A stretch of 63,081 nt of DNA, the filler included, from Hausera hauseri (taxonomy: Eukaryota): assembly GCA_046269625.1 (NCBI GenBank). It is 10 parts of 10 records of this genome, joined end to end, with 100 filler letters (N's around TTAATTAATTAA, not from the genome) between each part and the next. Parts side by side here need not be neighbours in the genome. Positions count along the whole stretch, not along the records: positions 7,730 to 12,351 come from JBJURY010499909.1; 9 more parts are not named here. One strand, given 5' to 3'. Shown in pieces: positions 697 to 32,899 of the stretch; position 1 is the first letter of the stretch, and every line of letters begins with the position of its first letter. The notes below the pieces were generated by a model, which saw only the letters and a program-made list of their open reading frames with translations, made no database searches and was not told the origin of the DNA. Both the position numbers and the translations under genes were made by a program.

Positions 697-3480
697 ATGG
701 ATCGAAATTTCACTTTGTCGAAACAGAATTTGATAATTCATGAAATTGATCTGTATAATGCACGTGTTAAAGGAATTACTGAATTGTTTTTCAATAATTT
801 ATCGCACCAACTCAGTTGTATCACAATCGACTGTTGCGGACCAACGGTAACTCATGTTACGATAGAACACATTTCTGATTGTTTGTTTCAAATTGTTGAC
901 GGCTGTAAATTGCAAATAAACGTTCCTGTCGAATTGATTAATAGGAAAAATATTCGCGTAAGGATCATATTTGAAAGCACCGGTAGTCGATGTGGTATTA
1001 CATCAATGATGAGCACATTACCTTGCACCAGTGCAGACTACCTCTATTGTGCACCATATAATAACACAGCCGCGTCTCTCTTTCCTTGCATCGAATTTGG
1101 TAAAGCCTGCGTTTGGGATATTTCAGTTGTATCACCGCAACGCGACATGGTTGTACTTTGCAGTGGGGAATGTTTAGGATTTGAAGACAATATCTATCAA
1201 TTTAGTGTATCTCATCCCATGACTGCCCGATGTATCAATTTTGCTGTTGGTCATTTCTCATTCTTTGTTCATAACGATGATAGCCGATTGGAATTTTTCG
1301 CTCCGGTTGAATTTGTTGATCAAACTCGACTGATAGCAGATGTCGCCGTAAGGTTTGCCCGATTTGTGGACAATAAACTCCATCGATTTCCTAAGTTGCG
1401 CGTTCTTTTCGTCGAACATTTGCTGGATGATTATTATTCATCGTCGAATTTGCTACTGCTGGACGTTCGTCTGCTCCAGTCCGGTTTAACAGACGCAAAT
1501 CAAATGACGATCGTCACAAGATCAGTTGCTACAGCAATGTTCGAGCAACTGATCGGAGTCTGTGTCGAACCACTGCGTTGGGCAGATTCATGGATCTGTT
1601 GGGGGTTTTCATCGTATTTTGCGATGAAATTTCTCCGAGACGAGATTATCCGGAACGATGAGGTATTATTGCAACTCGTACGTCACGATATGGACGTTGT
1701 TGTGCGATACGAGGACGAATGTGGTGGCATTGCATTGGATTCCACTGATGAACCGCAGCCGTTGTTTAACGCAAACGAACCTCGTCAAACGTTGCAGAGA
1801 TACACGGAAATGTTACGCCGAAAATCCGGATTGGTCATTCGTAGCTGGGCATTGGCCATATCGCACAGAGAGTTGGAGAATCTTACGAAGGAATTACTCC
1901 AATGCGACAAGTTCGTCGGTGAATCTCTACTACAGAAGCGTCCTTTGGGTCCGTGGAAGGGTGCTCTACAAACAATGATTCGAAAACGTGGGCACGTGAA
2001 GATAGTCGGTACTGCGCATTTCAATGCCAAATCAAAATCCGTCCAAGTGCGAATCGTACAGTTGCCCTCCAAAGGATCTTTTATGTACGATGGTCCGTTG
2101 CCAATTGAAGTACAGGAACCGGAAGGTGTTTGCGTCAATATTTTACGAATTCCGGCTTTACGGAAGGCTACAATCGAGTTCCACATGCGGTCCCGTCGTT
2201 CACGTATACGTCAGACGAATCGTAAGGTCGTCAATCGGATGATGGAGTTAGTCGACGGTCCGACAATTGGCTATGCTGTATTAGATCCGTCATTAGCGCT
2301 TATTGGATCGGTGTGCAGCCAATTGGATGAGGAACAAACACGTTTCATGATAGACAACACGACATCGTATTCGGTCATGCTGCAGGGGCTTGTGTCGTTA
2401 CGTGGCAACCAAACATCCGATCACGGTGATCGGTTATTGGATATGGCACGTTCTCGTCAAATACCGCTTTGTTTACGATTGGAATCCATATCGCAAATGG
2501 AATCGTTACTCCGATTACCGGACTGTTCATTGCCTCACGATACGATTAAAGCGTTGCTTGTCAGAGTCTGCTTTGATGAGGATGGGAACGGCATTCGATG
2601 TCCACATTTCCATTGGAAATACATCGACGATATTCTCGTTCAACAGGCTCTCATTGCAGCAGCTGGCCGGTCTTTCGTTGCTCGTACTCGTTGCGAATGG
2701 GCGGATTTCATTGAAATGCTGACGGACATTTTACGCGCGTCATCAGTAGCGGATGGTTATTGGGACAGTCATTGCAGAATACGTGCAACTGTTATCCGTG
2801 CAATGGCTGACTCAATAAACGATACATCGAGACAATTCATACGTGATGATGACGTTTGTAACATATGCGACATAGTACTTGACCAATGGATATCGGATTT
2901 TGCAATTCCGGCATCCGATCTCTGCGTAACGGCAGCCTGTATGCGTTTATACGCACGGCTAGAACAAATGGGCTTATTGACAGGAACGTTGTCCATTTAT
3001 CTTAGTCAGGATTCTGATGATAATGAACTTGTACGGATTGCAGGAATTCGTGCGTTGTTGACGTTTCTTGTCGGATTTTCTGATCCGACTGAACCCGTAC
3101 AACAGATTGTGTCGTTTATCGGCCGTCGAACGGTGCCGCTTTCTCTACGGGTACGAGTAATCCACATTGTCACTGAGACCCTTTGGCCAATGGCATCGTT
3201 TGAATTGTTTAAAACGTTCATGCAACACCGGCAGGAATTGGAAAATATGTTTGCCAATGAGCCGGTCCCTCCATTGAATTTGGCATTATGTGAAATGGCA
3301 CGAGCAATCAAAAATTTGAAACGGACAATAACCAGTACACAAAATGCAAAAACCAAACAATTATTAGATTATTTAAAACCGAACGAAACATGTGATGCAA
3401 TCGACGGGAATGTTTGCGAAACGATCAAATCTTATAACACTGGCGAACAATTTAATCTCAGTGATGATTCCGATGGGTAA
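697..3480 (+). CDS. TAF2: TFIID subunit 2 (TAF2)-like protein, M1 aminopeptidase fold, non-catalytic, intronless and divergent
   Basis: Uninterrupted ORF (first ATG at 697; ORF track starts at TTG 667). Segments FTLSKQNLIIHEIDL..VKGITEL, LFPCIE...VWDI...MVVLCSG, INFAVGHF and FEQLIGVCVEPLRWADSWICWGFSSY parallel TAF2 motifs; no HEXXH. Confidence 0.8.
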   Translation: MDRNFTLSKQNLIIHEIDLYNARVKGITELFFNNLSHQLSCITIDCCGPTVTHVTIEHISDCLFQIVDGCKLQINVPVELINRKNIRVRIIFESTGSRCGITSMMSTLPCTSADYLYCAPYNNTAASLFPCIEFGKACVWDISVVSPQRDMVVLCSGECLGFEDNIYQFSVSHPMTARCINFAVGHFSFFVHNDDSRLEFFAPVEFVDQTRLIADVAVRFARFVDNKLHRFPKLRVLFVEHLLDDYYSSSNLLLLDVRLLQSGLTDANQMTIVTRSVATAMFEQLIGVCVEPLRWADSWICWGFSSYFAMKFLRDEIIRNDEVLLQLVRHDMDVVVRYEDECGGIALDSTDEPQPLFNANEPRQTLQRYTEMLRRKSGLVIRSWALAISHRELENLTKELLQCDKFVGESLLQKRPLGPWKGALQTMIRKRGHVKIVGTAHFNAKSKSVQVRIVQLPSKGSFMYDGPLPIEVQEPEGVCVNILRIPALRKATIEFHMRSRRSRIRQTNRKVVNRMMELVDGPTIGYAVLDPSLALIGSVCSQLDEEQTRFMIDNTTSYSVMLQGLVSLRGNQTSDHGDRLLDMARSRQIPLCLRLESISQMESLLRLPDCSLPHDTIKALLVRVCFDEDGNGIRCPHFHWKYIDDILVQQALIAAAGRSFVARTRCEWADFIEMLTDILRASSVADGYWDSHCRIRATVIRAMADSINDTSRQFIRDDDVCNICDIVLDQWISDFAIPASDLCVTAACMRLYARLEQMGLLTGTLSIYLSQDSDDNELVRIAGIRALLTFLVGFSDPTEPVQQIVSFIGRRTVPLSLRVRVIHIVTETLWPMASFELFKTFMQHRQELENMFANEPVPPLNLALCEMARAIKNLKRTITSTQNAKTKQLLDYLKPNETCDAIDGNVCETIKSYNTGEQFNLSDDSDG

Positions 3481-6400: not shown

Positions 6401-6652
6401 TTCATGTTGTCGAACCGCCATCGGACCCATAACTTCAGGTTAGCCTTTATTACACGAATACACAATTTTATGTTGGAATGCCTGAACAGATCATTAGCTG
6501 GGTTGAAAATTCCTTAGTGATAGTGATAGACTTAAATTACCAAACATATAAACTGGTGCCCCGAGTAAGGATCAGCCTCCATCACTTAATACTAATAATG
6601 ATACTGTTTTATTGAATATACGGGTGGTTAATTTGATTTTATAAAATTTAAT

Positions 6653-6907
6653 GTGGCGGAATGTGGCATTTGTTTTTGTCCAATCAACTTCAGATATGCA
6701 TTATTCTCCAGATGCACGCATTTCACATGCATCAAGTGTGCAGACGCCTGGATCAGTAAGAAACAGAGCTGCCCCTTCTGCCGAAGAAAGGTCACAAGTT
6801 ATAACTGCCTAGGAACTACTGTAGTGGTAATCTCGGATGATGAGGAAGATACAGAAGATCATGACCATGCATACGTGCTTGGATCTAATGGGATGTCGTG
6901 GGTGTGA
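6653..6907 (+). CDS. Small C3HC4 RING-finger protein with SIM-like acidic tail
   Basis: CGIC...CTHFTCIKC...W...CPFCR followed by VVVISDDEED; start uncertain (GTG, possibly spliced). Confidence 0.75.
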   Translation: MAECGICFCPINFRYALFSRCTHFTCIKCADAWISKKQSCPFCRRKVTSYNCLGTTVVVISDDEEDTEDHDHAYVLGSNGMSWV

Positions 6908-7136: not shown

Positions 7137-7499
7137 GAAATCGGTCCTATACATCTGGAGAATTCGACCTTGGATAAATTGACACTGCCGTGTAATCATC
7201 AATATTGTCGAAGTTGTATATACACCTGGTTATCTGAAGAGCCAACTTGCCCATGTTGAAGAAGAGTGTGTGCATTCTGTTCAGCATGTTCCAATGTAGT
7301 GGTTGACTTCATAGCAACTTTTCTTCGTCGACACACCTTCTGTCATTACTGTATAATTGAACATCTAAAAGTCTATCAGTTATGCCCTTCCTGTCCCGAG
7401 TATACTGACTTTTATTTTTTGGAAGGATTGGTCATCTATATGAACATTGACAAACGAATATCAGTGAGCCTTAAAATAGATGAAGACGAGGATGACTGA
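7137..7499 (+). pseudogene. Tandem double-RING ORF with acidic tail (degraded)
   Basis: In frame: LPCNHQYCRSCIYTWLSEEPTCPC*RR then CSAC...HTFCHYCI...CPSC...DEDEDD; TGA at 7257; candidate 47-nt intron GTAAGA...TTTTGCAG at 7091-7137; AATAAA at 7579. Confidence 0.7.
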
Positions 7500-7729: not shown

Positions 7730-7922
7730 TCAAATTTTACCCCGAGGGGGGTGAATTTTTATCCCGAGGGGCCAATTTTTATTTCGAGTGGGTCAATTTT
7801 ATCTCGAGGGGTAAATTTTTATCTCGATGGGGTTGATTTTATTTCGAGGGGGTCTAATTTTATCCCGAGAGGTAAATTTTTATCTTAAGGGGGTCTATTT
7901 TTATCCAAAAGGGGATCAATTG
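7730..7922. repeat. Degenerate ~20-bp tandem repeat (AATTTTTATCTCGAGGGGT), probably Polinton subterminal
   Basis: About nine imperfect units visible, directly beyond the integrase 3' end. Confidence 0.8.
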
Positions 7923-8076: not shown

Positions 8077-9114
8077 GTCTAATCTCAAGTCCTCACATCT
8101 AACTACTTGTATCCGTGTCACTTGAACAGATATTGTTTAATCGAACCTTTGTCGCGTGAAAGTATAATTTTCTGAATACGATACACATGTAGTTTCTGAG
8201 GCAATACCTGCAGTTCCAGTTCGTAAAATTTATCACCTATTTCCTCGTTGGTTGCATTATGCTCTAAAACGTACATAACGGTCGCTTGTTTTGTGTTGGC
8301 TGCAGAAATTCGAAAAACGGCATCTCTCCCGCTTTTATTCAACTTCTTGATGAATGGCGTTGTACTCAGCTTTGAAATATGTATATAATCACCAATTTTA
8401 TATTTTGGACGTTTAATTGTCTCTCGTTGGCGGTTTTGATAAAGCCACTTGCCCAAATTACCTGTTACATCAACTGGCCGTAATCCATTGATTCTACAAT
8501 ATGTCTAATGATTGTATGCATGGATAATATCCGGCAGTACATCTACCCAGCGTTTATTGTCTTGCTTGGTAAAGAATTTGTTCAGTCAACTGCGTAGGAT
8601 TCGATTGAATAGTTTAACCAGTGCAGCCTTTTATTGAGACAACACAGAGCAGTGGTTTACACGGAACTGGTTCAAGACCGAAGCAACATGGGAGTTGTAA
8701 AATTCTTTACCAAATCCGTTTATATGTGCTTCGGCCGTGGTTGTTTTATTAATTTTTGAACAGCGTCGGCAATTTCTTTACCAGATTTAGATTTTACAGC
8801 AACTGCACATGCAAAACGACTAAACCCATCAACATACGTAAACACGTAGCGTTATCTGTCGTTATTGCTATAGTACGGGATCATTTCAATCAGATTCATT
8901 TGCCTGCAGCACTGTACGCACTAGATGGAAACAGTTTTCTTATCAGTTTGTCCAGGCTATATGCTAACTGTTTCTAGAGCCAATGTTAAGTTTGTCGTCG
9001 ACTCCATTTTGCAATCTCTGTCAGTTTATCTACGCCAGTATACCCAACGGGATGACGTGGATTGAACCATACGTCCATCGTTGTCAGTGTTGTACCTGTC
9101 GTTTTTGTTTGCAT
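8077..9114 (-). pseudogene. Polinton-type retroviral-like integrase with C-terminal chromodomain
   Basis: WFNPRHPVGYTGVDKL, RWVDVLPDIIHAYN, PKYKIGDYIHIS, FYELELQ, YRIQKII...QYLFK*HGY; several stops and frameshifts. Confidence 0.88.
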
Positions 9115-9209: not shown

Positions 9210-9557
9210 ACATTCATTGTTTATACCACCCATTAATGATATGAAAACCGGAATAATTGTGCCAATAATCCACCGTCTTGCTGTTACATGACTTCGAGTT
9301 TTAGTCGTTTACTACGGGCGTTGGCAAGGTTAATGAATCGTTTTCGATATTTTAATAAATTCCGTTTTCCACTATCAATGACAACGTGACCCACAACAAT
9401 ACTGTACAAAACTTCCATTAAGTCGTTCATTACAAATTACGGGAATGATCGTAGCATGATTCGTTTATGTCACGACGGTGCTTTAAGGAAAGCAATAAAG
9501 TACGGTTAAGTACTTTTCAAACGTATGTTTCGCCAGTTTATATTCATGCGTCGACAT
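9210..9557 (-). pseudogene. Small Polinton-type protein with basic core and C-terminal GG-amphipathic helix
   Basis: DLMEVLYSIVVGHV...LLKYRKRFINLA...QQDGG[frameshift]IGTIIPVFISLMGG. Confidence 0.6.
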
Positions 9558-9563
9558 AGTTGT

Positions 9564-9773: not shown

Positions 9774-10415
9774 TCAAATTTGTTTATTGACATACACACC
9801 TTTCGGATTGAAAATGTATGTTTGTACACATATACTATCTAGACACTGTAGTGTAATGTCGATGAACAGATATCCGTCTGGCTTGGTCGTAGCCCAAATG
9901 TATGCGTCGATTAACTAGACCCGGTTGTGAGGAAATGCTTGTCGTGCAACACAATCTGTGACAGTCTGATCACGGTAATTTTTAAACAGTACCAAATATT
10001 ACACGTTTAGATTTTATGTTTGATGCTGGCCGCCCTGATGGAACAAGTTTTGCGTAATGAAAATAACCGTCACACCACGGAGTTGTGCAATCTTCATGAA
10101 CAGGTTTTTGAAGTCCAATTGTTTCGCGGCTTCTAGGAATAAATCGTCAATGGCAATAACATCACCGTTGCGTAATCTCTCAGACCAGTTCTCATCAAAT
10201 CCATCAATTACCGTTATCGATTTTAATTTACAAAATTCCCGTTGTGTCAAACCGGATTTACCATCATCACCAACACCCTGATGCTAGTATATGTGATTGT
10301 ACCGCGGTGAATGGAACATATCACGGTAGTTCTGTAATATTTTACATAAAAAGTGCGTTTTGCCACTTTCACTGGGACCTACAGTCTGGAAAATTTAATT
10401 ATTCTGCAGCTTCAT
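9774..10415 (-). pseudogene. A32/FtsK-like DNA packaging ATPase
   Basis: Walker A GPSESGKT, Walker B VIAIDD, IFITQNLF, YLVLFKNYRD, GYLFID; several in-frame stops. Confidence 0.9.
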
Positions 10416-10487
10416 GTAAATAATAATATACATTTCCGCAGACGTTTTTGTTTATATTCACGCCGCACACATAAATACTGCTACAGT

Positions 10488-10966
10488 ATGAACACTGTTT
10501 TCATAATGTTAGCCAATATTAACTATCGTGGAAATGTTTTAGATTGTATTGACGCATTACCGTTTAATCAATGGAAGCTGAGGCAGTATGTCCATAAATG
10601 TCCACCAGATTTTACATGCATCATATTTCAATCGGTCAAGTGTCGTATTATGGGTTGTCGCAAAATAGTCACAAATAATAACAGTAAACTACCATTCGAA
10701 ATTGTCATTGACCAAATTCAATCAATAATGGTAACGACTCAGTTAGATTTCCATCAGTCAATCAATCTGTACAAATTAGCAATGGCTACCGAATGTATTT
10801 ATGAGCCAGAACTATTTCCCACACTGATATTAACATTGCTTCGTCCACTTTGTGTTAACGTGTTTAGTAGTTGAAAAACTGTCGTACTCGGTATTCCGAC
10901 AATGGACTATGAAGCGACTGTTAATCAAATTAAAAACCATATAAATATTTTAGTGAATCAAAATAA
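10488..10966 (+). pseudogene. TATA-binding-protein (TBP)-like gene inside the Polinton
   Basis: Two TBP-like half repeats: CIIFQSVKCRIMG and INLYKLA...YEPELFPTLIL...VNVFSS*KTVVLG (TGA at 10872 replaces the conserved Gly). Confidence 0.8.
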
Positions 10967-11559
10967 TGTACTCTGCACAATCAACTATAAATATCACTCA
11001 TGTTCGTTCAGACATTTCTACTATGAAAGACAACGATAAAACGATACTACTCAATGGTGACAATGATAAAAGTTCAGATCGGTCGTGGTTGTTTGGTGGC
11101 GAGAAAGACAATTCCAACGTAGAAACGAAAACAGAACCTGTCCAACAATCAGCAAAACCGTTACTAAAACGGCAAGTGGTTGATAGTGGAATACTAAAAC
11201 GACAATTAAAGCCAGCGTCTCGTCAAGCACCGGCACTTTTACCGAAACGACTTTTTCGAAAGTATGAAATGCATTGTCTGCAGACGTCTGTACAGGTTTC
11301 GTTGAATGATCCGGTGTCGTTGAAGGCAACCACCTACAGTTATCATGTAAAACGGCTGCCGGGTAAAAATTTGGATAAACGCACTGATACTTCACATAAA
11401 TTAAACGTCGATTTAAAGTTGAATGAAACGGCCCTACAACAGCAATCTGTCGTTTTACCAGCCGTAAAAACTAAATTGCTTGATTTTATCGGTCGAGAAA
11501 TGTCTAATGTGCCTTGTGGTGCTCACTTTAGCCCACATAATATTTTTTGCATGTCTTGA
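10966..11559 (+). CDS. Hypothetical Polinton accessory protein
   Basis: 197-aa ORF directly after the TBP-like gene; no recognised motif. Confidence 0.4.
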   Translation: MYSAQSTINITHVRSDISTMKDNDKTILLNGDNDKSSDRSWLFGGEKDNSNVETKTEPVQQSAKPLLKRQVVDSGILKRQLKPASRQAPALLPKRLFRKYEMHCLQTSVQVSLNDPVSLKATTYSYHVKRLPGKNLDKRTDTSHKLNVDLKLNETALQQQSVVLPAVKTKLLDFIGREMSNVPCGAHFSPHNIFCMS

Positions 11560-11633
11560 CTGCACTTTTCTGAACGTTCGTCATTTAAAAAATAGTTGAT
11601 CAAAAAGACCAAATGCCAGAATTCTGTGTCATA

Positions 11634-11882
11634 TCAAAAAGCATCGATTTCATCCAGCATTTCTTTGCGGCAATGAAGAAAAGGAAAAAATACTCCATTG
11701 AATGTCGAATAGAACGAGTCTACTAATTCCTTGTTCGGTGTATCGTTGTCACTGAGGTTTGTATCATAACCCTTTATAACCAAAATAACATAGCCGTCGG
11801 TAGTAAAAACTCTAATATCCTCGGAAATAAAACCGTAGACTTTTAAACGCACGATATTTATCAGAAGTTGAATAATATCCAT
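11634..11882 (-). CDS. Hypothetical protein
   Basis: 82-aa ATG-initiated ORF convergent with the previous ORF. Confidence 0.3.
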   Translation of the reverse strand: MDIIQLLINIVRLKVYGFISEDIRVFTTDGYVILVIKGYDTNLSDNDTPNKELVDSFYSTFNGVFFPFLHCRKEMLDEIDAF

Positions 11883-12351
11883 TAATGGAGATCAAATGTT
11901 ATCATGAAACACGAATTACGACAAGAAATAAAGTCAAAATTGTATGTACATCAAATATCAAAAATGGAGAATATAGAAAATTCAAGTCTGTCTTTTTATT
12001 GATTATTTAAACAAAACTTTATTATTATTTTTTGACATGCACACAATTTGTTGTACACACAAAACTCAATGATATAATTCCAGGGAACAGAAATCTTTGT
12101 AGTCAGTCTAATATGCTGCTTCAACTGCTGTTGAAAGCTGAGTCTTTCAGGCTACTTCCATCCTAGTTGAAATTTTTATGCTTGTGAATGGTTGAAAAAA
12201 TCCACTGACTGAATGGATTGTTCAGCGTTTGATCCAGTGAATTCTTTTTTTATAAAAATATCTTGTTCCGGCCATACTCTGTTGCAATGATAATTTTCTT
12301 GTGAAACTGTGGGTCTTTGATTAATGAAATGATGGATAATGTAGCTTTCTC

Positions 12352-14952: not shown

Positions 14953-17245
14953 TCGACGGATTAAATTCTTAAAGCAGGGAGTTGGACGCAACTATTGATC
15001 CGACAAGGCGATAAGGAACGCCCGACCGTGCCCGACCAAAATGGGCCAAAGGGCACCGGCCGCAGTGGACACCACATCATTCCCTCGTGGCAAGGTTAAA
15101 ACTATAAAGAGTAAAAGAGACAGAAAGAAAAAACGCTAAACGAAGAGTGTCTGTGTCAGTTGATCTTAGTGTGAACAAGCCGTTGGGTGCCTTCTACTGA
15201 TTTTTCCCTGCTATACATGCAAAATAGGACTCTGCGTGGTTTGTCTGTATGCGGTGTATTTGCTTGTAGAGTTTGAAGTTGGGGAAAAAGATTGTCGGAT
15301 TTTGGTGTAAGTATTGTGTCGTGCAAAGAGGAGTTTGAATGAAGGAAAAAAGAAGGTGAAGGAGGAAGAGAAATTGTTGGCTGCGAATGATTAAAGGTAT
15401 TCAAGAGTGTTAGAAAACAATGGACTGACAAAATGTGTAGTGGCAGATGTAGGAGGAGAGACGAACATTGGGAAGGAAATTGGAATTGTGTTAGGCGAGA
15501 GAGTAGAAGTAGAAGACGAAACGAGGTAGTGGTAGAGATAGGATGATAGATGGGAATAGAAGTAGAAGGTGTGGAAAATGATGAAGCGGAACTAGGAGCA
15601 GAAGGAGGAGATGAAACTGGTGTAGCAACAAATATAGGAACAGTAGAAAGTGTAGGTGTGTAAAAAGAGGTTGACGTGTCGATTGGTGAAGTGTCGTCGA
15701 CAAAGAAGGCGGGCTTTAAGTTGGTAATATGCACTGCAAGTTCGTTGCCGTCTTTAGAAATAATTGCGTTGTGTGAATGCAGCTGTACCAGTTTATAGAG
15801 CCCCAGATACCGCGGTTGGAAACCGCACGGCGTTTGATTTTTTAGCCATACGAATTTTGCCGAATACAAGTCTTTGGGTAAATATGTTTTGTCTTTGTAA
15901 AGTAACCTGCAGAACGAATCTTTGCTGACCGTAAAAAAGTGATTTTGCGCCACCCGTATCGTTTCATCTGTAGGAGCGTCGTCTAGGGCAGTTAGTACGA
16001 ATAAGGATCATACAGGAGCTCCGAATAAGGCTTCAGTAGGTGAGCATCCCGTAGAAGTAAACGTCTAGTGTTGGACTCTGCCAGAATTCTTAGTGACGTT
16101 TTCAATATTCGGTGGAAACGTTCTAAAAGGCCATTCGACTGCGGTGATAAGGTGTAGTATGTATGTGATGGATCCCCAATCAGTTTTCAAGGGATTTGAA
16201 CAGGTTGGATTCAAACTGTGGACCCTGGTCCGTGGTGAGGAAACGAGGTGATCCACACCTGCTAGTCCATGTACGAATGAAAACGTCAGCTATAGTATCA
16301 GTGTTTGTGCTCCGCAGAGTGATGGCTTCTGGCCATCGAGAGGAACGGTCCATCATGGCGAGACTGAATTGATGACCGTTGTCTGGAGGAAGAGAGTTAG
16401 CGACGTCGATATGCGCGGATTCGAAACGCGATGTGCAGGAAAAGTGGAATAGTAGTGGCTTCAAATGCTTAGTTGTTTTGTATTTTTGGCAAACCACACA
16501 CTCCTTAACCCATGCGTGCACATCAGAACGCATTGACTTCCAAACTACTTGTCGATGGAGTAAACGAAAAGTGGCTTTAGCACCGGGGTGGTGCAGCGAA
16601 TGTACTCTGTTAAACGCTTGCTTTTGCTGAAGTCGTGCAAAAACTATTACGTAATGACCTGGTTTGGAAGTGTCTAAAGCCGCGCCGTCAACAATTGTGC
16701 AAGACTTGAAAGAACTAAGCATGTCCTGAGATGGCTGAATCTGTTGAAGTTGGGATTGAGTAAAAATCGTCGAAAAATGAATCGAACTAACCGACCTAGA
16801 TAAAATGTCGGCAACTAATTTATTAACTCCGTTAATGTGTTTTGTGTCGAAGTTAAATGTCGACAAGTATGATATCTGTCGTTCTTGGCATGTGGAAGGA
16901 TATTTCATAGCTATGATGTTAAGTAAGGGTTTGTGATCGGTCTGTATGGTAAAATGGCGAGCGACAAGTAGGTGGGAGAAATGCTTTAAAGTGAGAACAA
17001 TGGTCAATAATTCTCGATCGAATGTTGAATATCTAGTTTCATGGATGTTAGCTTGCAAGAGAAAAATTTTTGATTTTCTCCTTTGTGGATATGGTGAAGC
17101 ACAGCACCTATTGAAGTGGTTGAAGCCTCTATATTAAGGATAAGTTCCGCATCAGGCTTGTGGAAAGCGAGAATGTCGACGGTCTTAATTCCTTCGCGTA
17201 GCTTATCAAACTTATCAAGCAACTCAGGTGTCCACTGGATTGTGT
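14953..17245 (-). mobile_element. Gypsy (CsRn1/Kabuki-like) copy: RNase H, integrase, Ser/Pro-rich tail, probable PPT and partial 3' LTR
   Basis: YSTFDRELL, TDHKPL, HSLHHPG...CVVCQ, DRSSRWPEA, TDQGPQFES; purine tract at about 15201-15210. Confidence 0.9.
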
Positions 17246-17268
17246 AAAAAATAAATCCAATGTAATAA

Positions 17269-20200
17269 GTGAATCGAATGATAAATGATAAATTCCGCCG
17301 TTATTTCTTGTCACCGCTGCCCACCTCAAACAAAGCCTTACTAACCGTTGTCGACGAGTCCACTGCTATCGAAATACTGGCAATAATGGCTGACAAATAC
17401 TTTGAGATTCTGCATATTAACAGTTCTCTCCCTATTGCGGCTTCAACCACATGTGCTCCAACTACAGACACAACATTTTTACTCAACAATTGCAAATGAT
17501 GCAGTAACAGTTTGAGAAGTTACAGCAGTCGATTTTGGCCATTACTATCTTCTAAATAATCTTCATGGGCCTCGACGAAGTGAAACCAGACCTTTAAGGG
17601 AGAGAAGCATTTCCAGACACACTGCTCGATCCATTTCACCTGGCGGATGCATTACTTGCTTCTATCACACACGATTTCGAAGGGATGCTAGGAAATGCTT
17701 TTTGAGTTGTCCGTTCTACAGCGAACGGTACGCTGTAGACAACCCTATTTGTGTCTACCACAATAAGTTCCAGTCACAGGCTAGATCATGCGTGCCTGAT
17801 TAGAAGCATTACAATGATAAATCTCTTCGCTTTTCTTCCTCTTCTTCCTTTTCTCCAAAACCTTCAAAAAAACTAATAGTGCCGCCAGATTTTTCGGCAC
17901 ATTCTGGCGCAGGCAATATCGCTCAATCTTCTGGCCGTTTCAACACCGCCTCTGCAGTCTTTCTGTTGAAAGCTGTACTGTTATGCAGATATATTTCACA
18001 TATCGACTTCCTTATAGACGCAGGAGCTGCCTTTTTGCTCCTTCCCTTGTCCTTTGTTCCTACATCGATTATGATTTCCTGTCCACCGTTTTTCAATGCC
18101 AGCGGTCAACCGTTGCACTTTACAGGAATCACGGAATTGACTTTCACATTCGCCAACTTGCCAGATAAATTTATATGGAAGTTTCACGTGGCCAACATTA
18201 AATCTCCCATAATAGGCTCAGATTTTCTTGCCGCATATGATCTATTGGTCGATTGAAAATACAGCTGTCTTTTAAGCAGGAACTCGATTGCAACTCCAGA
18301 CATGTGTCTCGTAGACAACTTAGCGAGCAATTCATTGCACTCATCTGTGAACATGTTGAACGCTTCTCCATCTATAAAAAACTTCCGATAAAGTCGGTAA
18401 TATTTCAGTTATGAACGACAATCATAAATCTATTCTCAAACAAAAATCCAAATTAGGCGTCGACAGTAGCGATGCAAGTTGCTTTTCGTCAATCACTGGA
18501 GCTGTTTTTTCTAATGATATACCTCATTCATTCTTGTCTCTAGACTCCAATCTTAAATCATACGTCACAACGCATTGCTTTCGCATAGTTAAAAAGGACG
18601 TCAACTTCAAGCCTCCATCCACAACTTATGATCACATATTAACAGAGCATCAGAAGCCGATCAAACAAAAGGTCAGACTTTTGTCGCCACGCAGACGTAA
18701 AGCTGTGGAACAGGAATTTAATGAACTGGAAAGGTCTGGCATCATTCGGAGATCGAATTCACTGTGGGCTTCTCCTCTTCATGTAGTGGTAAAGAAAGAT
18801 GGTACCTATATGCCATGTGACGACTATCGACAATTAAACAATCTAACTATTACAGATGCCTATTCACTGCCACTCATTAAAGATATTCTTCATAGCCTCA
18901 ACAACACCAATACCTATTCTACCATTGATCTGCACAAGGCCTACAATTAAATTCTTGTTGCCCCTGATGACATTCCAAAAACTGCTGCCATTACACCAGT
19001 TGGACTTTACGAGTATATTTTTATGCCTTTCGGTCTACGTAGTGCATCTCAGACTTTTCAGCGCTACATTGACACCGTTCTTTCTGGTCTTGACTTTGCA
19101 CACCCATACATAGATGACATATTAGTCTCTTCCAGCTCCAGCAAACAACATTATGAGCACCTTAGAATTATTTTCCAAAGAATGCATCAAAGCAACCTGC
19201 AAATTAATTTCGCCAAATGCAATTTCTTCCAGAAATGCGTCAACTTCCTAGGTCACATAATTACTCCCAAAGGTCATTCGCCTCAGCCTGATCGCTTACC
19301 ACAATTGAAAAATGTGACATTACCAATTACCACTACCGACATGAAGAATTTTTTAGAGACACTGCACTTCGTACATAAGTACGTGCCACACTGCTCCGAA
19401 CTAATCGCACCTTTTGCACACCTCTCATCTAAGAAGAAAAGACAACTAATCTATTGAACTCCCGATCTAGTTAATCAATTTGACAGCCTTTATGATGGTT
19501 TGAAATCCGTTTAAATCTTGGCTTTTCCAAAACCGAACGCAAAACCAATATTAACTACCGATGCCTCAACCACAGCCACTGGTGCGATATTACACCAAAT
19601 ATACAACTGTGTTGACGAGTCATTGGAATTTTATTCCCGAAAGCTCACACAACCGGAAAGCCAATACCCAACATTCGATCGTGAACTCCTGGCCATAGTT
19701 TTAGCGGTAAAGCATTTTAAGTATTTGCTCCTATCCCGTCAGTTCGTCATCCAAACTGATTATAAACCTCGATATCTTATCATGACGTTAAAACAGCCAT
19801 CACCCAGGCACGAACGTCAGATATCATATCTGTCGACATTTAGTTTTTCCATGAAATATATTTCTGGCACCGAAAACTTAGTAGCAGATATTCTGTCGCC
19901 GTAAACTCAATTACAGTTCAACCAATTTTTGCCTCTGAAGTCCTAAAAAGTAATCAGTCATCATCTGATATTCTCCAAGTCTTTAAATCGGTTGAGGTCA
20001 TCGATGGCATCGCCTACGACACATCCAACTCGACTAATAAAAAATCATTCTTGCTACATCACTACAAAAGACAACTTTCACGCATTTTCACTCTCTTCAT
20101 CATCCGGGTTCAAAAACCACATTTCGTCTACTGCAACGCCACGTTGTATGGCCAACTATGCGTACAGATGTACAGGTCTGGATCAAGGAATGTGCAGCAT

Positions 20201-20281
20201 GCCGGCAATACAAGGTCCACAAACACCTAAAACCACCACTTTACCACTTCCCTTGTACGTCCCGTTTTGACACTGTGCATT
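17269..20281 (+). mobile_element. Gypsy (CsRn1/Kabuki-like) copy: partial gag, PR, RT, RNase H, start of IN
   Basis: CHCC-type boxes CFYHTRF...ARKC...C; FLIDAGA; WASPLHVVVKKDG; YIDDIL; TTDAST; FDRELLA; many stops. Confidence 0.93.
17866..17908 (+). promoter_or_regulatory. Gag-pol -1 ribosomal frameshift signal (slippery AAAAAAC plus downstream stem)
   Basis: A7C then TAA; 5-nt spacer; stem GTGCCG (17879-84) / CGGCAC (17895-900); loop CCAGA complementary to TCTGG (17903-07). Confidence 0.65.
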
Positions 20282-20381
20282 NNNNNNNNNNNNNNNNNNN
20301 NNNNNNNNNNNNNNNNNNNNNNNNNTTAATTAATTAANNNNNNNNNNNNNNNNNNNNNNNNNNNNNNNNNNNNNNNNNNNN
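20282..20381. other. Artificial contig spacer
   Basis: N44-TTAATTAATTAA-N44. Confidence 0.98.
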
Positions 20382-21429: not shown

Positions 21430-22618
21430 ATAAAGGATACAGGTATTATAGATCTGGATGAGGAAGACGATATCATTCAAGCAATAAAGACTATCGATCC
21501 CGATAACATAATCGATGTAGATAAAAAAAACCACCACGATACTAAAGATAATCACTAATAAAGAAACAGTAGAAAGGATGGATGAAATTTTGTCTTAATT
21601 AGTGTTATTGGCCCAAGATACCAGCCCGGTGAGGGAAATACCACGAACAATACTGGCCAAGGCCGCTGAAGATGAGAAAGGAGGAAATGAAACCATAAGA
21701 ATAACAGTAAGAGAAGGAAATCGAAATATGAGAGTTATTCGAATGAACGAAATACACGACGTACCAGCTTTATGAGAGAAGATAGAAGAGTTGGAACCAT
21801 TCTATCAAGGAAATCCTTATGAACTGAATTATTACGGAAGAACGTTATATAGTTATGATAAATTATTGAGAATTGGATGTAAAAGTAAGAACTATAATTC
21901 AATAATAATAACCGAAATACATGCAGAGGCGAGAGCTCAAGTAACGATTGATAATATCCTAAGGGAAATGAAACCGCAGGAAGTAGAAGGACCTCTCGTA
22001 GGTGATACGCAAGATGTTACGGTCCAAACAGAGGCTAAGAGACGAGGTAGACCAAAAGGAACAAAGATAAGTGATATTCGTAATAGGAAAGACAGAAATA
22101 AGGAAATGGTGAGACGTCTGTTGTTAGCAGGAACAAACGTTATGCCCGAATCGGTGGACATAGACCCGTTATTAAGAACTCTACTGGCTAAGTTACACAC
22201 ATCATTCGCTTCCTTTGATATGGAAGTAATAAATCCAGATGAACTATTCCAAACATTACATAACAGTATGTTGCGAATAAGTAGGCAATTCTATGACAAT
22301 CTCGACGAAGAACGGATAAACGAATTACACGAATTAGATGTTTTGGAAACGATGTACGCAACAGGGATCACACGGGCGAAAGCACAAACTGCTATATCTT
22401 ACCTATTATATAAAATAATAGTAATCAACCATCAAACTCAAAACTTAGAAGAAATTGAACGAAATATAAAGACAGGCTTCAAAATTCTGAAGGATACGTT
22501 AGGCAACTGGGTCCAATGTAGAGGTGGATGGTTGACTAGCTTAATGACTGACATAACAAGGTTAGAAAAACGTGGAAGACTAGTAGATACGCAAAATGAC
22601 TCAATCAAATACTCCTAG
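21430..22618 (+). pseudogene. Unknown helical domain X with AT-hook-like motif, apparently continuing the gag reading frame
   Basis: ORF 21791-22618 plus upstream decayed frame; KRRGRPKG; conserved in copy B. Confidence 0.7.
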
Positions 22619-24349
22619 ACAATGTGTCGCCGGTATGTCAATCATGGAAATCTTTCAGGTACTTTTAATATCGTCATTATTGATGCCAAGAGCTGTAGGT
22701 ATAGTGGCTTTCGATTGCTCAAAGCCTAGTGAAGGACAGAAGTACTCTTTAGCTGACTTAGAGAAGTGTCCAGAAGCCGACCCAGAACAACTATCAACGA
22801 CAAGTGGACTTACATATTGGATTTATCAAGAGTCTGAATTTATAAAAGTGAAAGTTACGGAATGTTACTTAAAGAAATCATTCTTTCTTTTCAACTGTGC
22901 ATATTCCGGAAATTCTGCCATTATCGAGCCCACAACACATTTTGAACCGATGATAATATCACGAGCAGAATGTCAGGATGCTTTTAAGATCGGCATAATA
23001 ACCATTCATTATGCACACATACCTGCAGTTCGGAACAGAATACAATACACCAGAATTTTTAGAGAAGGAAGAATTGATAAGACGATGGAAGGTACTTTTA
23101 TTGGAGAATATTATGATGCGGGAGGTACTATCGCATCAAGAACGATGGCAATTGAAGACTACCAGGTTCAATTGAAAGAATACGAAGTACTATTTGACTC
23201 ACAAACGAAATTACTGACAACTATGAGTGAATGCGAATACGATAATGGCGAATGCGACACCGGAGAGTCAAAAATGACATGGGAAACATCAGCAAATAAG
23301 TGTCAGTTAACGCTGTTGAAAGAAGGAAGACTTAACAAGACAGTAGGAAAAACGGCTGAGAAAATGGCGATGTATAAAGAATGAACGAAGGAAGTTAAGA
23401 TGACGGAAGTAGCTACAACGTGTATTCGGAACACCCATAGTAAATGATGCGATTTAAAGTCAATGGAGTGATAAATAAATGTAATGAAGAAATATCTAGA
23501 ACTAATTATAAAGGGATTTTTTTGTCATCAAAAGAAATACCTGGTGCTAAGACAAAGATAGATAAAAAGGACATAAAATTAACACAATATTTTAATAATG
23601 AGATTGATTTCTTAATCAACCATGTAAGGAAAGAGATTAGAGGTTTATAGAGAAATAATAATGAACGAGTGTAAATTAAACTATGAAATAATACAATACA
23701 AAATGGCCTTGGTAATTACGAATCTAGATATGGTAGCTCCGGTGATGTCCTTTGGCGATGGAGTAATCGGAGGAGTAATGGGCGAGGTATTAATAACCAT
23801 AGAGTGTAAAAAGATAGAGGTGTCAATTAGACCAACTGAAGAATGTACGGCAAAACTACCCGTAGTTTATCACTGAGAACCAAGGTATGTGATGCATGTG
23901 ACAAGAATATTGTTAGAATCTAACGGTAAGCCGACCTTATTGGAGAACTGCACGTTTAACATGTCACTTATGTTTAAACTGGATCACAAAACATGGATTA
24001 GAATGCCAAAAAGAGAACCGGTATCTAAACCAGCTACATTAAGCGTGATCAACCTGCAAAGAAAGAAGAGATTTGAACCGTTAACAGGAATATCGCAAGG
24101 GGGAATTTATACGCAACAGAATCTAGAAGATTATCGACCAATGTTGCTGTTTCCCCTACAGAGACAGAGTTATAACAGAACTAATCAGGAGAGTAATGTG
24201 GGATGGTGAAGGATCACCATAATGGAAACTGTAATGGGCAAAAATTATTTAAATAAAGTAACAAGGAATATTATGGAGAAAACGTGGGGAAGTTCTTATA
24301 TTTCGGCCAAGCAGCTTCTGGTTTCCTAGCGATATATTTCATTATTAGC
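22596..24349 (+). pseudogene. Chuvirus/herpes gB-like class III fusion glycoprotein (env)
   Basis: Signal peptide then AFDC...YSL...C, IYQ...V.ECY...NC, ISRAECQ, CEYDNGEC, GEVLITIECKKIEV...EECT.KLPV, VTRIL, GIYT, TM FGQAASGFLAIYFII. Confidence 0.85.
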
Positions 24350-27573: not shown

Positions 27574-28720
27574 GTCGATGGCTCGTACAAGTTCTTGTTC
27601 ATAGTTTCTTAATTCTTTCTCCTTAGATGCAAGTTTACACCTGTTGACATGTACTTTAATTATAGTGTTATTCTTCTTTAAATATATATTAGGTAGATCC
27701 ACTTTTTCTACTTCATACGGTCCCTTGTATGGTCTATCTAACTTGAATGTTTTACCTTTCTTACAACATCATCTTATCTCCTACTTTAACCGTTGGTTGC
27801 TTGGTATTTTTATCATAATACTTTTGTATTTCAATTTATAATCCTTTTGATTGTTCTTTATTACTTTATACGCTAATTGAAAACATTCCTGCATTAATTG
27901 TTTATATTCTTGTACCGCCATTAACTGAGATATAAGACGCACATTGAAATCCAAATCAATTGGTAATCTAGCATCTCTTAAATACATCATATAAAAAGGT
28001 GTTTCTTTGGTATGTTCATGTACAGACGTTCGATTCACAAAAACACACGCATTAATACACTCATCCCAGTCATCTTGTCTTACATTAACTACCGTTTGTA
28101 GCTTTTCTTTCAGATCTCCTATGTACCTTTCAACCATTCCGTTGTTCTTTGGGTGTCCCGGAGTTGATCGCAATTTCAATATCTTCATAATATCGTATAT
28201 TGCCTGTATTACCTTACCAGTTAAGTCAGATGCTTGGTCTGTTAACACAATTCGAGGAGCTCCATAATTAAATATGATGTTTTCTACAAATTTTTCGGCT
28301 ATCGTTTCAGCTTTCATATCTGGCATGGGTAGTGCAATGACTCATCGGGTGAAATAATCTATAAATACTAAGATATATTTGTTCCCGTTTCTTGTCAATG
28401 GTAAGGGTCCTGTTATATCCATTGCTGTGAATTCAAACGGGGTAGGTGGATTGCCCCATACTTTCAGGTGACCTTTAAATTTGCATCCCGTATTCTTTCT
28501 TGTGGCACAGAGTTTGCAGCTATCACACCAATCTTGGACATCCTTGGCTATGGTTGACCAGAAGTATTTCCTTTTTAGTTTGTTTATCATTTTTCTTACT
28601 CATTGATGTCCACCTAGTAATCCGCCATGATATTGGGTCAATAATACTGCCATATTCCTTTTTGAAATTACTAGTGGGGTCCATTTTCATGATAATATAG
28701 AAATCCATCTTTTTCTTCCT
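27574..28720 (-). pseudogene. Gypsy integrase
   Basis: YFWSTIAKDV...CKLC, MDITGPLP, DYFTR, LTDQAS, NGMVER, KLDRPYKGPY, VHVNRCK. Confidence 0.93.
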
Positions 28721-30200
28721 ACGCATCCCTAAATCGGGTTAAATGACGAGCCAGTTTTCTATCCTTTGGTACAATTTTATTTTGTATATAATTTCTAATG
28801 GCTTTTATTTCTTCATCTTTTCGTTGATTCTCTTTTATCCACTCTACGGATCCATCCATGCTCCATACCGCTGAAATTACTTCTTTCTTTTCTACCTCTT
28901 TCTGTGGCATTCTCGATAAATAATCCACGTTTGCATTTCGTGTGCCTGACTTATACTGAAAATCTAGCGTATAAGGTTGGAGTTTTAAAGCCCATCGTAG
29001 TAATCTACTATTTGGGTTCTCCTGCTTTTTTAGCCATTGCAGTGGTTTATGGTCTGTGTAGATTGTCAATGGTTTATTCTCACTAATATACGGTAAGAAT
29101 ACTTATAAGGCGAATATCACCGCTAATAATTCCTTTTCAACAACGGCATATTTCTTTTGGTGTTTATTTAATTTTCTTGACGTATAAGCAACTGGATGTT
29201 TCTTGTCATCTTCGCCCTTTTGTGATAATACCGCTCCTACTCCATAATCGCTTGCGTCCGTTGCCAGTACGAATGGTTTAGTCATATCTGGATAAGTCAG
29301 GATAGGGGCGTTCAATAATCATTCCTTCAGGTTCTAGAAGGCCTTTTTACACTCACTTGTCCATATTTTCTTTTCTAAATTTTCACGTAATAATTTATAT
29401 AGTGGTTTGGCTATTTTACTAAAATTCTTTACGAATATTCGATAATAATTTGCCAATCCTAAAAATTGGCCTAATTCATTGACAGTAGTGGGTTTTGGGA
29501 AATCTTTAATTTTATTTAATAATCTATCTTGAGGTTTTACACCATACCTATCAACTCGATGTCCGAGAAAATCAACTTCGGTTTGAGCAAATGAACATTT
29601 CTTCGGGTTTATTTTTAAACCCATTACTTCACATTTATCAAAGAGATCTTGTAAGTTCTTCAAATGCTGTTGGAAATTCGAAGATGCTATGATTACTTCA
29701 TCGATATATACCATAGCATGTGGTGCATCTAGAAGTAATAATTCTGTTCCTCTTTGAAAAGTCGGGGGTCCATTTTTTAATCAAAATGGCATTCCATTGA
29801 ATTTCCACAACCCTTCTCCTATTGAGAAGGCCGTTTTCGGCTTATCCTCCGCCTTTACTTCTACTTGCCAATATCCTTTCTGTAGATCAATTGTAGTGAA
29901 TATGGTTGAGCCGTGCAACTTGCGAGTATTTCGTCAATCCTTGGTAGTGGGTACGTGTCTGTTTCCGTTATTTTGTTTAACGCTCTATAATCTACACAGA
30001 ATCTCAGCTCCAACTTTCTTTTTTACCATCACTACTGGAGCCGTCCATGCGAAACAGCTGGGTCGTATTATTTTGTTTTCCCTCATTTCATTCATAAATT
30101 TACTAGCTTCTTCCTTTTTATTATATGCCAGTCTGTATGGTCGTTTTTTTATAGGTTTGTTTTGACCCTCCTTCAACTTGATCGCATGTTATATTACATT
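28719..30200 (-). pseudogene. Gypsy reverse transcriptase and RNase H
   Basis: [54 protein letters not shown]. Confidence 0.95.
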
Positions 30201-30250
30201 CATCGTTCCTAAATTATAATCATTTTTAGCCAATCGATTATTATTTTTCT

Positions 30251-31198
30251 CTAATTATTCTTTACATAAGATATATTACAATTCTGTAATTTTTCTTTCC
30301 AGTTGAAGTTGGTAGCTTCCTGCTCTTTATTTATATTTACATTTCCTTTCAATTTCTTCTTTATTAATTTGTCGATCTCATCTACTTCTGAGATTACTGA
30401 ATTAATTGCTTCTTTCAATACTTCTTTAACATCTGTTGCTTTCCCAAGTCTCATATTCCTTTTCAACCATTTCTCCTTTGCTGCCGTATTACAAATTCTC
30501 AGATGAATTCTTCCCTTCCTTATCCTGTCTATATGTGGTGCAACAATAATATTATGCTTCTCCATTATTTGTGGAAACGGTTCAAAGTGCACGCAGCTTG
30601 TCAATAATCCATACTCTATTTTACCGGGCATTACTATCTCTGATTGTTGTGGAATTATGACGTCTTTAATTAGTGAAATTGATCCTTCATATTGATATTC
30701 AAACCTTCTTAGTTATCCAGTTTTGACATCTATATACACATTATCCAACTGATATAATACATCACATTCGATTAGTATTTCGTTTGTTAAGTTTTTGGCC
30801 ACACTTATGATATGGCTTATTATTTGGCCACAGATTTTAATTTTTGCATCTAAAACTGTCTTTATCTCTTCCTCCATACCAAATGCTCCCACATTAATCA
30901 ATGTTTTTTCTGGTTTTCGTAATCTACTCACCAACGCCTTGGGTAATTGACTTTCCCCCATTATAGTGGTAGTGGATCCCGTATTTATTGGGGCCGTTAG
31001 CGTGTGTCCGTCTATCTCGATATCTATTTCTGGTTTCAACACCGACTGGGCCTCGTTCTTCTTCTCACTCGTTTTGCACGTAGGCTCACGATCATATGAT
31101 GCGTGTTTTTCTTCGTAATCCTGTTTTAGGCGCAATACTTGATATGTGGGATACATTCCTCCATGTTTTACATATTGAGGGGCTGAAGGACTTAACAT
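30251..31198 (-). pseudogene. Aspartic protease plus PR-RT spacer, preceded in frame by a PSAP-containing segment
   Basis: IEIDGHTLTAPINTGSTTTIM (DTG>NTG) and EILIECDVL (ILGxD motif). Confidence 0.8.
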
Positions 31199-31439
31199 TC
31201 GCTCGTTATATATTTGTCCGTGATATTTACCTGCCTGGTCTAACTGAGGTAAATCAGTAACCAGTTTCCGTTTATACTTCTGTCTTCGTAATTTTAACGA
31301 AAATCTTCTAAGTTTTGTTAAGTATCTGTCACTTCTCTGTTTGATATTTAATCATATTCTTCATCATCATTTTGGTATTTAGAGTACTATATGGCAAATT
31401 TTTCTCAATATCTTTAGTCCTTCCTTTTCATTTTGCATC

Positions 31440-32888
31440 ATGATTTGCTAAAAAACAAGTAAAAACCGCTGGTATTACCGCTATTAAGATTTCCTATGAG
31501 CATCATACTGTTGCATGTATTCCATAAGCCTTAGTGAGTGTAATGAATATTGTTCGTAGAGTACTAATGGTAAAATATATTGCTAAAATCCCTGAGGCAG
31601 CTTGACCAAAATATAAAAATTCGGTGTCTAGTAATATTCTAGTTACTGGTATTACGTACCAAGGATCCATATTATAAACTACTGGTAATTTTGCAGTACA
31701 TTCCTCCGTTGGCCTAATGGCTACTTCTATCTTTCTACACTCAATAGTTATAAACACTTCACCCATCACTCTTCCGATCACCCCATCGCACAATGGCATA
31801 ACTGGAGCTACTATGTCGTTGTTGGTTATTACTAACGCCATCTTATTCCGTATTATTTCATAATTTAATTTACATTCGTTCAGTAAAATTTCCCTATATA
31901 AACTTCTGATCTCTTTACTGACATAATTGATTAGAAAGTCGATTTTATCCTTCTTACCTATTTTTGTTTTAGCTTGAGCTACCTCTTTAGTCGAGAGGTA
32001 TATGCTTTTATAGTTAATTTTAAACATTTCTTCATCACAATTATTAATCGTTCCCACGATTTTAAATCGCATCATCCCTTCGGAGGTTTCTGAATATGCT
32101 ACCGTTGCTACTTCCGTCATCTACACTTCTCTGATTCCTTCTTTATATGTTGTCGATTCTCTTTCGGCTGTTTTTCCTACCGTCTTATTAAATTTCCCTT
32201 CCTTTAATAACGTAAGATGGCACCGATTCGCACCAACTTCCCAAGTCATTTTAGATTCTCCAATATAACATTCTCCGTTATCGTATTCGCATTCATTTAT
32301 AGTTGTCATGAGCCTGGTTTGCGAGTCAAATAGTCCTTCATCTTTTAATTGAACTTGATAATCTTCGATGGCAACTGTTCTTGGCGCGATAGTACCTCCC
32401 ACGTCGTAATCCACTCCTTTCAAAATACCTTCCTTCGTCTTATCTATTCTTCATGCTCGAAAGATTCGAGTATATTTTATTTTACTTCGTACTGTCAGTC
32501 TTTGTGCATTTGGTATCGTTATTAGTCCGATTTTAAAAGTGTCTTGGCATTCGGCTCGTAATATTATTATTGGTTCGAAAGGTGTTGTTGGTTCGATAAT
32601 AGCAGAATTCCCGGAGTAATATGCGCAATTAAATAGAAAGAAGGATTTCTTTTCGTAACATTCTCGAATTTTAACTTTTATAAATTCCGATTCCTGGTAA
32701 ACCCAATACCTATAGCCACTAGTTGTTAGTAATTGTTCTGGGTGCGCTTCGGTACACTTTTCTAGATTAACCAATGAGTACTTCTGTCCTTCTTTAGGCT
32801 TTGAACAATCATATGCCACCACGCCCATGGCCTTAGGCATCTATATGGATTCTATCAGTAGTAACTGTAATATTTTCATGAATGTCAT
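31440..32888 (-). pseudogene. Class III fusion glycoprotein, copy B (internal deletion of about 370 bp)
   Basis: VVAYDCSKP...; GRVMGEVFITIECRKIEV...EECTAKLPV; TM FGQAASGILAIYFTI and EILIAVIPAVFTCFL. Confidence 0.85.
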
Positions 32889-32899
32889 CCCGTCTAAGC

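Follow-up and report, generated by a model that had tools for sequence, protein, structure and literature searches.

The window, as we use the term here, is the whole stretch of DNA that was analysed, 63,081 nucleotides from Hausera hauseri. It joins unrelated contigs by ten artificial linkers (N44-TTAATTAATTAA-N44), and genes on either side of a linker are unlinked. A TBP-like gene is located on one 4,622-bp contig (7730-12351) with a linker at each end (Table 1). An integrase and a packaging ATPase, both hallmarks of Polintons, are found on the same contig, and both are broken. The contig carries a decayed, truncated copy of a Polinton/adintovirus-type element. A preliminary description of this DNA had placed the TBP-like gene inside a virus-like gene array. 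An array consisting of integrase, basic ORF, ATPase, TBP and SSB-like ORF is present, but it extends no further than the 4,622-bp contig.

Table 1. Features of the contig bearing the TBP-like gene, in window coordinates
Feature	Position	Strand	Evidence
20-bp tandem repeat array, left end of contig	7730..7906	.	TRF: period 20, 7.8 copies, 76% matches
Polinton-type retroviral-like integrase, broken	8109..9072	-	tblastn with L039 integrase, E 2e-72
Small basic conserved Polinton ORF ("PZ/basic"), broken, 4 stops	9254..9559	-	tblastn with L011 ORF, E 9e-21
A32/FtsK-type packaging ATPase, broken, 5 stops	9780..10433	-	tblastn with L002 ATPase, E 3e-78, 61% identity
TATAAAC box upstream of ATPase; predicted late core-promoter element	10450..10456	-	41 nt before ATG 10415
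Compact two-lobe TBP-like pseudogene	10506..10967	+	Pfam, PDB, homologue search, tree; fold from intact relative
X3 ORF, of a family often adjoining the TBP gene	10966..11559	+	tblastn to L027 over 11251-11424, E 1e-6
Right flank	11760..12351	.	Summed contig depth, run X1

The 20-bp tandem array is likely the terminal region of the element. It is the one end-like repeat array on the contig, from which the opposite end of the element is missing, and the element appears to be truncated near 11,600-11,750. The right flank likely lies outside the repeated element. Here the summed contig depth in run X1, a measure that does not equal copy number, drops from thousands or more to 19-50. The integrase is spread over three frames with 8 stops. 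Pfam rve was found in two integrase relatives, one of which also has a weak Chromo match. Candidate starts of the ATPase are 10433 and 10415, and an ATPase relative from locus L013 matches Pfam Pox_A32 (E 1.8e-6). The basic ORF family is found in 20 of the 80 TBP-bearing loci described below.

The C-terminus of the X3 ORF is degenerate in the window copy. The model of an X3 relative (pLDDT 91.4) was compared by Foldseek, and the top nine rows are gp2.5/Enc34 SSBs or phage-related, all of them weak (E 0.08-0.7). Judged from this model, X3 is likely a single-strand DNA-binding protein of the T7 gp2.5/Enc34 type. The X3 gene adjoins the TBP gene in 22 of the 80 loci. GT...AG intron-like sequence located just before the X3 ORFs of L003, L007, L012, L013, L018 and L027 suggests that the gene may be spliced.

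A tblastn search of the 4,622-bp contig with the proteins of relatives found no capsid, protease or PolB gene. Decayed pieces of Polinton PolB are present on three other contigs of the window, at 38181-41336 (+), 41762-43638 (-) and 46342-46623 (-), and are therefore unlinked to the TBP gene. Also elsewhere in the window are a DEDDh-like piece (58298-58675), a piece of the c17 family (44467-44631) and broken ORF pieces on the minus strand (33857-34627). The latter resemble the C-terminus of a Polinton capsid protein by eye, with support from neither Pfam nor tblastn.

Inspection of the TBP gene confirmed the motifs YEPELFP and FSS-x-KTVVLG reported earlier, in the plus-strand frame starting at 10488. 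The start of the family aligns with ATG 10506, and the upstream ATG at 10488 lengthens the frame. From 10488 the open frame encodes 128 aa and is ended by a TGA at 10872-10874. The compact TBP-like ORF of the preliminary description is thus correct as to homology but not as to intactness, and the position that had been bracketed in the second motif is this in-frame TGA. Besides the stop, the window protein differs from the family at five further near-invariant columns. The window copy cannot be functional; it is a dead copy. Read with X at the stop, the frame matches Pfam TBP, the test proposed for the repaired ORF, with E 3.7e-10 and 40 bits against a cut-off of 22.9. All 35 PDB sequence matches are TBPs. 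As for the two repeats proposed, Pfam detects the C-terminal one alone, but both lobes of TBP are covered by the model of P0001, an intact relative.

The gene starts divergently near the ATPase, as had been stated: the two are head to head, and their ATGs (10415 and 10488) are separated by 72 nt. A TBP/ATPase promoter conserved in this arrangement was considered and rejected, because most relatives are co-oriented: the two genes are on the same strand in 25 of the 27 related loci holding both. In one public run (X1), 2,125 contigs fall on the 651-bp TBP stretch with a spread of identities. At the position of the stop, 28 contigs representing 533.5 of 571.3 depth units read another letter. The TBP family thus has multiple copies in this run, and the stop is atypical of it.

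A protein search covering lengths of 88-280 aa revealed 65 homologues among 70 candidates, with 31-74% identity. They span 107-275 aa, and most have 144-190 aa. The window protein is 74% identical to intact database proteins. A profile made from 59 homologues found 61 clusters at E < 1e-30 in a 50%-identity library, and among the best 150 profile matches 145 are shorter than 270 aa, the longest having 388 aa. P0001 is only 27% identical to a canonical TBP. Its AlphaFold2 model (pLDDT 94.6) aligns over residues 1-148 with human and yeast TBP (Z 12.8, rmsd 2.5-2.6 Å, 146-147 residues, both lobes). The TBP fold, whose absence had been named as grounds for discarding the assignment, is thereby confirmed in the P0001 model.

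A tree was built from 52 chosen rows. A 100/100 branch separates the 33 rows of the family from 19 cellular, archaeal and other viral-type rows. The family clade has a long stem. Within it, the window protein belongs to the most reduced subclade, together with P0001 and P0002 (99/97). The data do not support a recent capture from this host, since the family forms a deep, long-stemmed clade with rewired DNA-contact residues. For the 19 closest pairs, with dS up to 0.63, dN/dS ranges from 0.06 to 0.49, and its median is 0.43 over all 238 pairs, saturated pairs included. As far as such ratios can tell, this shows that the family is under purifying selection.

Linkage was counted in 80 loci out of 134 metagenome matches. 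The integrase, protease, PolB, ATPase and PLA2X labels are based on Pfam matches of representatives. The MCP and mCP labels are putative. They were assigned by size and gene order, and no library supported them: the likely MCP matches nothing in Pfam, PDB sequence or PHROG, and the likely mCP has no more than a weak match to Pfam WWE. At least one of ATPase, INT, PolB, protease and likely capsid genes is located beside TBP in 37 of the 80 loci. Among loci of at least 3 kb a Polinton core gene is found beside TBP in 25 of 35, and among those of at least 8 kb in six of six. PolB is present in 8 of the 80 loci, protease in 6, likely MCP in 10 and likely mCP in 13. With core genes beside TBP in many independent loci, the proposal of an element-borne TBP gene of Polinton/adintovirus type is borne out.

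Several of the ORFs neighbouring TBP have no known family. Accessory genes of the TBP-bearing elements include a ubiquitin-conjugating enzyme (L024:225-719), a dual-specificity phosphatase (L007:4008-4316) and an LRR protein (L034:1918-3327). No TFIIB or RNA-polymerase Pfam match was found among 33 ORFs from the 80 loci, most of which are incomplete, or among 73 further ORFs (72 of the 122 listed non-core ORFs and one X3 ORF). A scan of IMG/VR with the TBP alignment gave one locus only, L001, with an unrelated, more canonical TBP, and scans with the ATPase, likely-MCP and PolB alignments gave no matches there. L001 is a contig of a large virus; its TBP is near-canonical and has ribonucleotide reductase subunits, a split PolB and a heliorhodopsin as neighbours. 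In the tree this TBP falls outside the Polinton TBP clade.

For the anatomy of the protein, positions were mapped through the canonical TBP P0177, using the yeast names given in Table 1 of PMC12529657. The alignment (A1) holds 59 of the 65 homologues, with P0020, P0037, P0042, P0044, P0053 and P0054 left out. The DNA-intercalating Phe residues, to which the preliminary description had drawn attention, are retained in part: 58-59 of 59 sequences have the equivalents of F116, F190 and F207, but F99 is lost, and no conserved aromatic is found at its position in the family. V71 is replaced by Asn, V122 by Arg, T124 by Met, N159 by Ser and L205 by Asn in 59 of 59 each, an invariance that is inflated since the homologues were collected by shared words, and V161 is replaced by Thr in 56 of 59. 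Only N69 and V213 are kept from the canonical base-facing set (N69, V71, V122, T124, N159, V161, L205, V213, T215), and the equivalents of N69, L189, P191 and V213 are mostly kept. The classic altered-specificity mutant of TBP is changed at I194, V203 and L205, and the family differs at all three positions.

The N-lobe of TBP reads the 3' half of the TATA box. In the window subclade this lobe is ~25 residues shorter than canonical and helix H2 is deleted; the helix is likewise missing between the lobes in the P0001 model, and N-lobe helix H2 is shortened in the L061/L066/L073 group. A less reduced subclade, comprising the L061-L074 group and P0192, keeps more of both N-lobe helices. This suggests that the N-lobe shrank stepwise within the family. 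Helix H2 carries a patch bound by TFIIA, TAF1, Brf1 and Mot1 (PMC7221094, section 12). The glutamates of the EPE stirrup (the C-lobe pair), which contact TFIIB (PMC7221094), are kept in 59 of 59 and 58 of 59 homologues.

The Polinton TBP has the two-lobe saddle in common with cellular TBPs (PF00352; eukaryotic TBP and its paralogues, and archaeal TBP), as well as the equivalents of F116, F190, F207, N69, L189 and P191 and the EPE stirrup. It differs from them in its length, ~150 aa against ~180, in the lack of an F99 equivalent and of helix H2, in the replacement of V71, V122, T124, N159, V161 and L205, and in forming a separate long-stemmed clade. The TBP fold is also encoded by large dsDNA viruses (Nucleocytoviricota, mirusviruses), and Foldseek gave viral matches with E 1e-7 to 1e-3. 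However, most TBP-bearing large dsDNA viruses also encode their own TFIIB (PMC7221094), whereas no TFIIB Pfam match was found among the Polinton TBP neighbours scanned, and the six viral-type TBPs in the tree group with cellular TBPs, apart from the Polinton family.

Beta- and gammaherpesviruses encode a viral TBP mimic (vTBP) that serves late genes with a variant TATA box, TATT (PMC12529657). KSHV ORF24 has a polar-rewired saddle and drives late genes via host Pol II (PMC12529657); EBV BcRF1 and HCMV UL87 are further herpesvirus vTBPs. The Polinton TBP resembles these proteins in a polar-rewired DNA face. YATAAAC, a box analogous to TATT but different from it, is strongly enriched before genes of its elements that may be late. 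ORF24 has 752 aa with Pol II-binding and extra DNA-binding domains and is part of a six-protein complex (PMC12529657). The Polinton TBP does not have this large multidomain layout, but is a bare core. Furthermore, ORF24 keeps four Phe and is without the TFIIB glutamates, whereas the Polinton TBP has three Phe and keeps the glutamates. The Polinton TBP is not a member of the herpesvirus vTBP family, and that it works like ORF24 we infer by analogy only.

Integrase, FtsK/A32 ATPase, adenain-type protease, protein-primed PolB and PLA2X are found in TBP-bearing loci, as they are in Alpha adintoviruses, Polintons and MELD viruses (Starrett et al. 2021, PMC8502044), and PLA2X marks Alpha-class virion modules (PMC8502044). 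The Polinton TBP gene is not wholly absent from print. The label "TBP" occurs once in the text of PMC8502044 available to us, in the legend of Fig. 5 (MELD virus), with no family analysis or promoter box in that text, and in two figure legends of the preprint. In the literature on Polintons, adintoviruses or Mavericks with TBP or a promoter motif, represented mostly by listings and with subscription papers outside the scope, no family-level description or box was found.

The motif YATAAAC was counted within 120 nt upstream of genes after removal of near-identical upstream regions, with the expectation taken from shuffles. It precedes 22 of 23 ATPase genes (0.88 expected), and is similarly found before the basic ORF (15/16), the likely MCP (9/10), the likely mCP (9/12), PLA2X (10/12), INT (10/14), a gene that we take to be DEDDh-like (11/15) and LRR family genes (5/5). 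The counts are 1/55 before TBP (2.2 expected), 2/16 before the SSB-like gene and 1/3 before PolB. No reverse-strand box occurs in the ATPase, basic ORF, likely MCP, likely mCP, PLA2X and INT groups. The distance from box to ATG has its mode at ~35 nt, and the C after YATAAA is strongly fixed, in 84 of 97 sites.

In most loci the ATPase box is located ~35 nt from the ATG, whatever the distance to the ORF upstream, which varies from overlap to 1,099 nt. Downstream of TBP the box is present in 14 of 14 cases when the ATPase is the next gene and in 1 of 17 when c17, c20 or c21 is next. The box thus tracks the downstream gene and not the upstream stop, and a poly(A)-signal reading is for that reason disfavoured relative to a promoter. 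Six YATAAAC matches are located on the window contig, all on the minus strand (~1.2 expected, P ~0.001), one of them directly before the ATPase. This box faces away from TBP, and no co-oriented upstream gene was detected. An ordinary TATA pattern is found upstream of 25 of 55 TBP genes, but also before 8 of 23 ATPase genes, both counted without shuffle control, and a normal TATA box before TBP is therefore not established. Based on these upstream regions, YATAAAC is a well-supported candidate promoter box of the Polinton family.

Four Polinton contigs picked by integrase alignment in IMG/VR were used as controls; three are independent, and L084 is the most complete. No TBP was seen in the stretches fetched from them (best 5.1 bits). 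The box precedes none of the four control ATPases and 1 of 49 ORFs, and the control ATPases have an ordinary TATAAAT or TATATAA upstream. Control L085 has 12 minus-strand motif matches, 7 of which are in a repeat array. The contrast between TBP-bearing loci and controls gives a Fisher P of 0.0015, a value that overstates the contrast, as it is in effect one between two clades, and the control is weak because the contigs are incomplete, few and from a distant lineage.

We consider it fairly probable that the Polinton TBP is a late-promoter factor that binds YATAAAC, likely acting via host TFIIB and Pol II in analogy to the herpesvirus vTBPs. TBP and SSB would be made early by the host machinery from ordinary promoters. 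The element TBP would then bind YATAAAC and bend the DNA with its three Phe, and the kept stirrup may recruit host TFIIB and then RNA polymerase II, so that packaging, virion and integration genes would be switched on as late genes. The element TBP would presumably escape control by TFIIA, TAF1 and Mot1. The role suggested in the preliminary description, directing host Pol II to element promoters, finds indirect support in the YATAAAC box. In favour of a late factor, the box is at a fixed distance before the ATPase, virion-type and integrase genes and not before TBP or the SSB-like gene. Speaking against it, integrase, DEDDh-like and LRR genes, none of them plainly late, have the box too. Another point against it is the missing F99 equivalent, as KSHV ORF24 requires all four Phe (PMC12529657).

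More tentatively, a large animal-associated Polinton clade may run a one-protein late switch, in which a bare TBP of 150 aa would be reprogrammed to YATAAAC and use host TFIIB and Pol II, its host-regulatory surfaces having been shed. The AdMLP C(-25) variant in PDB entry 1qn3 presumably reads TATAAAC. By its title, this entry holds wild-type TBP on that variant, and Hoogsteen pairs have been described for TBP on it (PMC4402545). The box therefore need not require the element TBP, and host TBP may read it, which is the chief result against the late-factor reading. No passage on TATAAAC was found in PMC2396422.

This bears on a rival reading that we regard as rather unlikely, in which host TBP/TFIID reads YATAAAC as a weak TATA variant and the element TBP is a decoy or repressor that ties up TFIIB or blocks promoters, resulting in host shut-off or self-silencing. 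The crystal of wild-type TBP on the C(-25) variant is consistent with it, as are the TFIIB-contacting glutamates, which are the best-kept surface, and the loss of one intercalating Phe and of N-lobe helix H2. However, a pure TFIIB decoy needs no five or more invariant new DNA-facing residues, a C fixed in 84 of 97 sites is hard to explain if the reader is a host factor preferring A/T, and elements in which no TBP was seen have an ordinary TATA before the ATPase. Alternatively, the box could be the site of another element or host factor, or a poly(A) signal variant, with TBP co-occurring by shared ancestry of one Polinton clade. TATAAA and CATAAA are poly(A) signal variants, the genes are in tandem, several neighbouring ORFs are without a known family, and all TBP-bearing elements may be one clade. 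We nevertheless find this improbable, given that the box keeps ~35 nt from the ATPase ATG while the upstream gap varies from overlap to 1,099 nt, and that it follows TBP in 14/14 cases with the ATPase next as opposed to 1/17 with c17, c20 or c21. The window box, moreover, points away from TBP, no upstream gene in the orientation of the box was detected, and a TATA-like box fits a protein of TBP fold.

The element TBP could also have left initiation altogether, its saddle bending or binding DNA in replication, integration or packaging, like some TBP-fold relatives. An SSB-like gene adjoining TBP in 22 of 80 loci and the strong reduction of the protein speak for such a role, which we judge very improbable in view of the kept TFIIB stirrup and of a TATA-like box at core-promoter distance before many genes. 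A further alternative, a retrocopy of host TBP or a passenger fragment that decays in a Polinton, agrees with the decayed state of the window copy. A single-copy retrocopy had been raised in the preliminary description, but this alternative has so little probability left that we consider it refuted. The window protein is 74% identical to intact database proteins and P0001 only 27% to canonical TBP. The family forms its own clade, is element-linked in many independent loci and is under apparent purifying selection, and run X1 has 2,125 contigs on the 651-bp TBP stretch, with a spread of identities.

If such a one-protein switch exists, it would form with its box a natural, orthogonal pair of TBP and promoter that arose independently of the herpesvirus system, and would be evidence for a staged, virus-like expression cycle in these elements. 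The Polinton TBP would also be a natural case of a TBP shifting its DNA specificity while keeping the TFIIB contact, unlike the herpesvirus vTBP, which is without the TFIIB glutamates, and the giant-virus TBPs, which mostly come with a TFIIB of their own. For the question of whether Polintons run a regulated, virus-like expression cycle, a dedicated TBP and a box to match it ahead of packaging and virion-type genes allow an early/late programme to be tested directly, with one small protein and short DNA fragments. The interest is in the TBP family, the window copy being only a fossil.

The window contains several further features on other contigs. An intact intronless ORF of 927 aa at 697-3480 (+), with 45% GC, has TAF2 Ig-like and weak peptidase M1 matches. 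It is TAF2-like (a TFIID subunit), and its proximity to the TBP gene is an accident of the assembly. Two short RING-finger ORFs are located at 6632-6907 and 7260-7499 (+), of which the first exceeds the Pfam cut-off; they may be part of a further virus-like fragment. Decayed pieces of a Ty3/gypsy-type retrotransposon are located on both strands at 15156-20337 (RNase H and integrase matches). Two related decayed copies, 70-77% alike, of a region carrying a Monjiviricetes-type fusion glycoprotein (Pfam E 1e-20) were found at 21968-24209 (+) and 31503-33694 (-), the latter adjoining Ty3/gypsy-like pol pieces at 27781-31351. A degenerate (TCGT)n satellite of 3.9 kb occupies 48368-52255.
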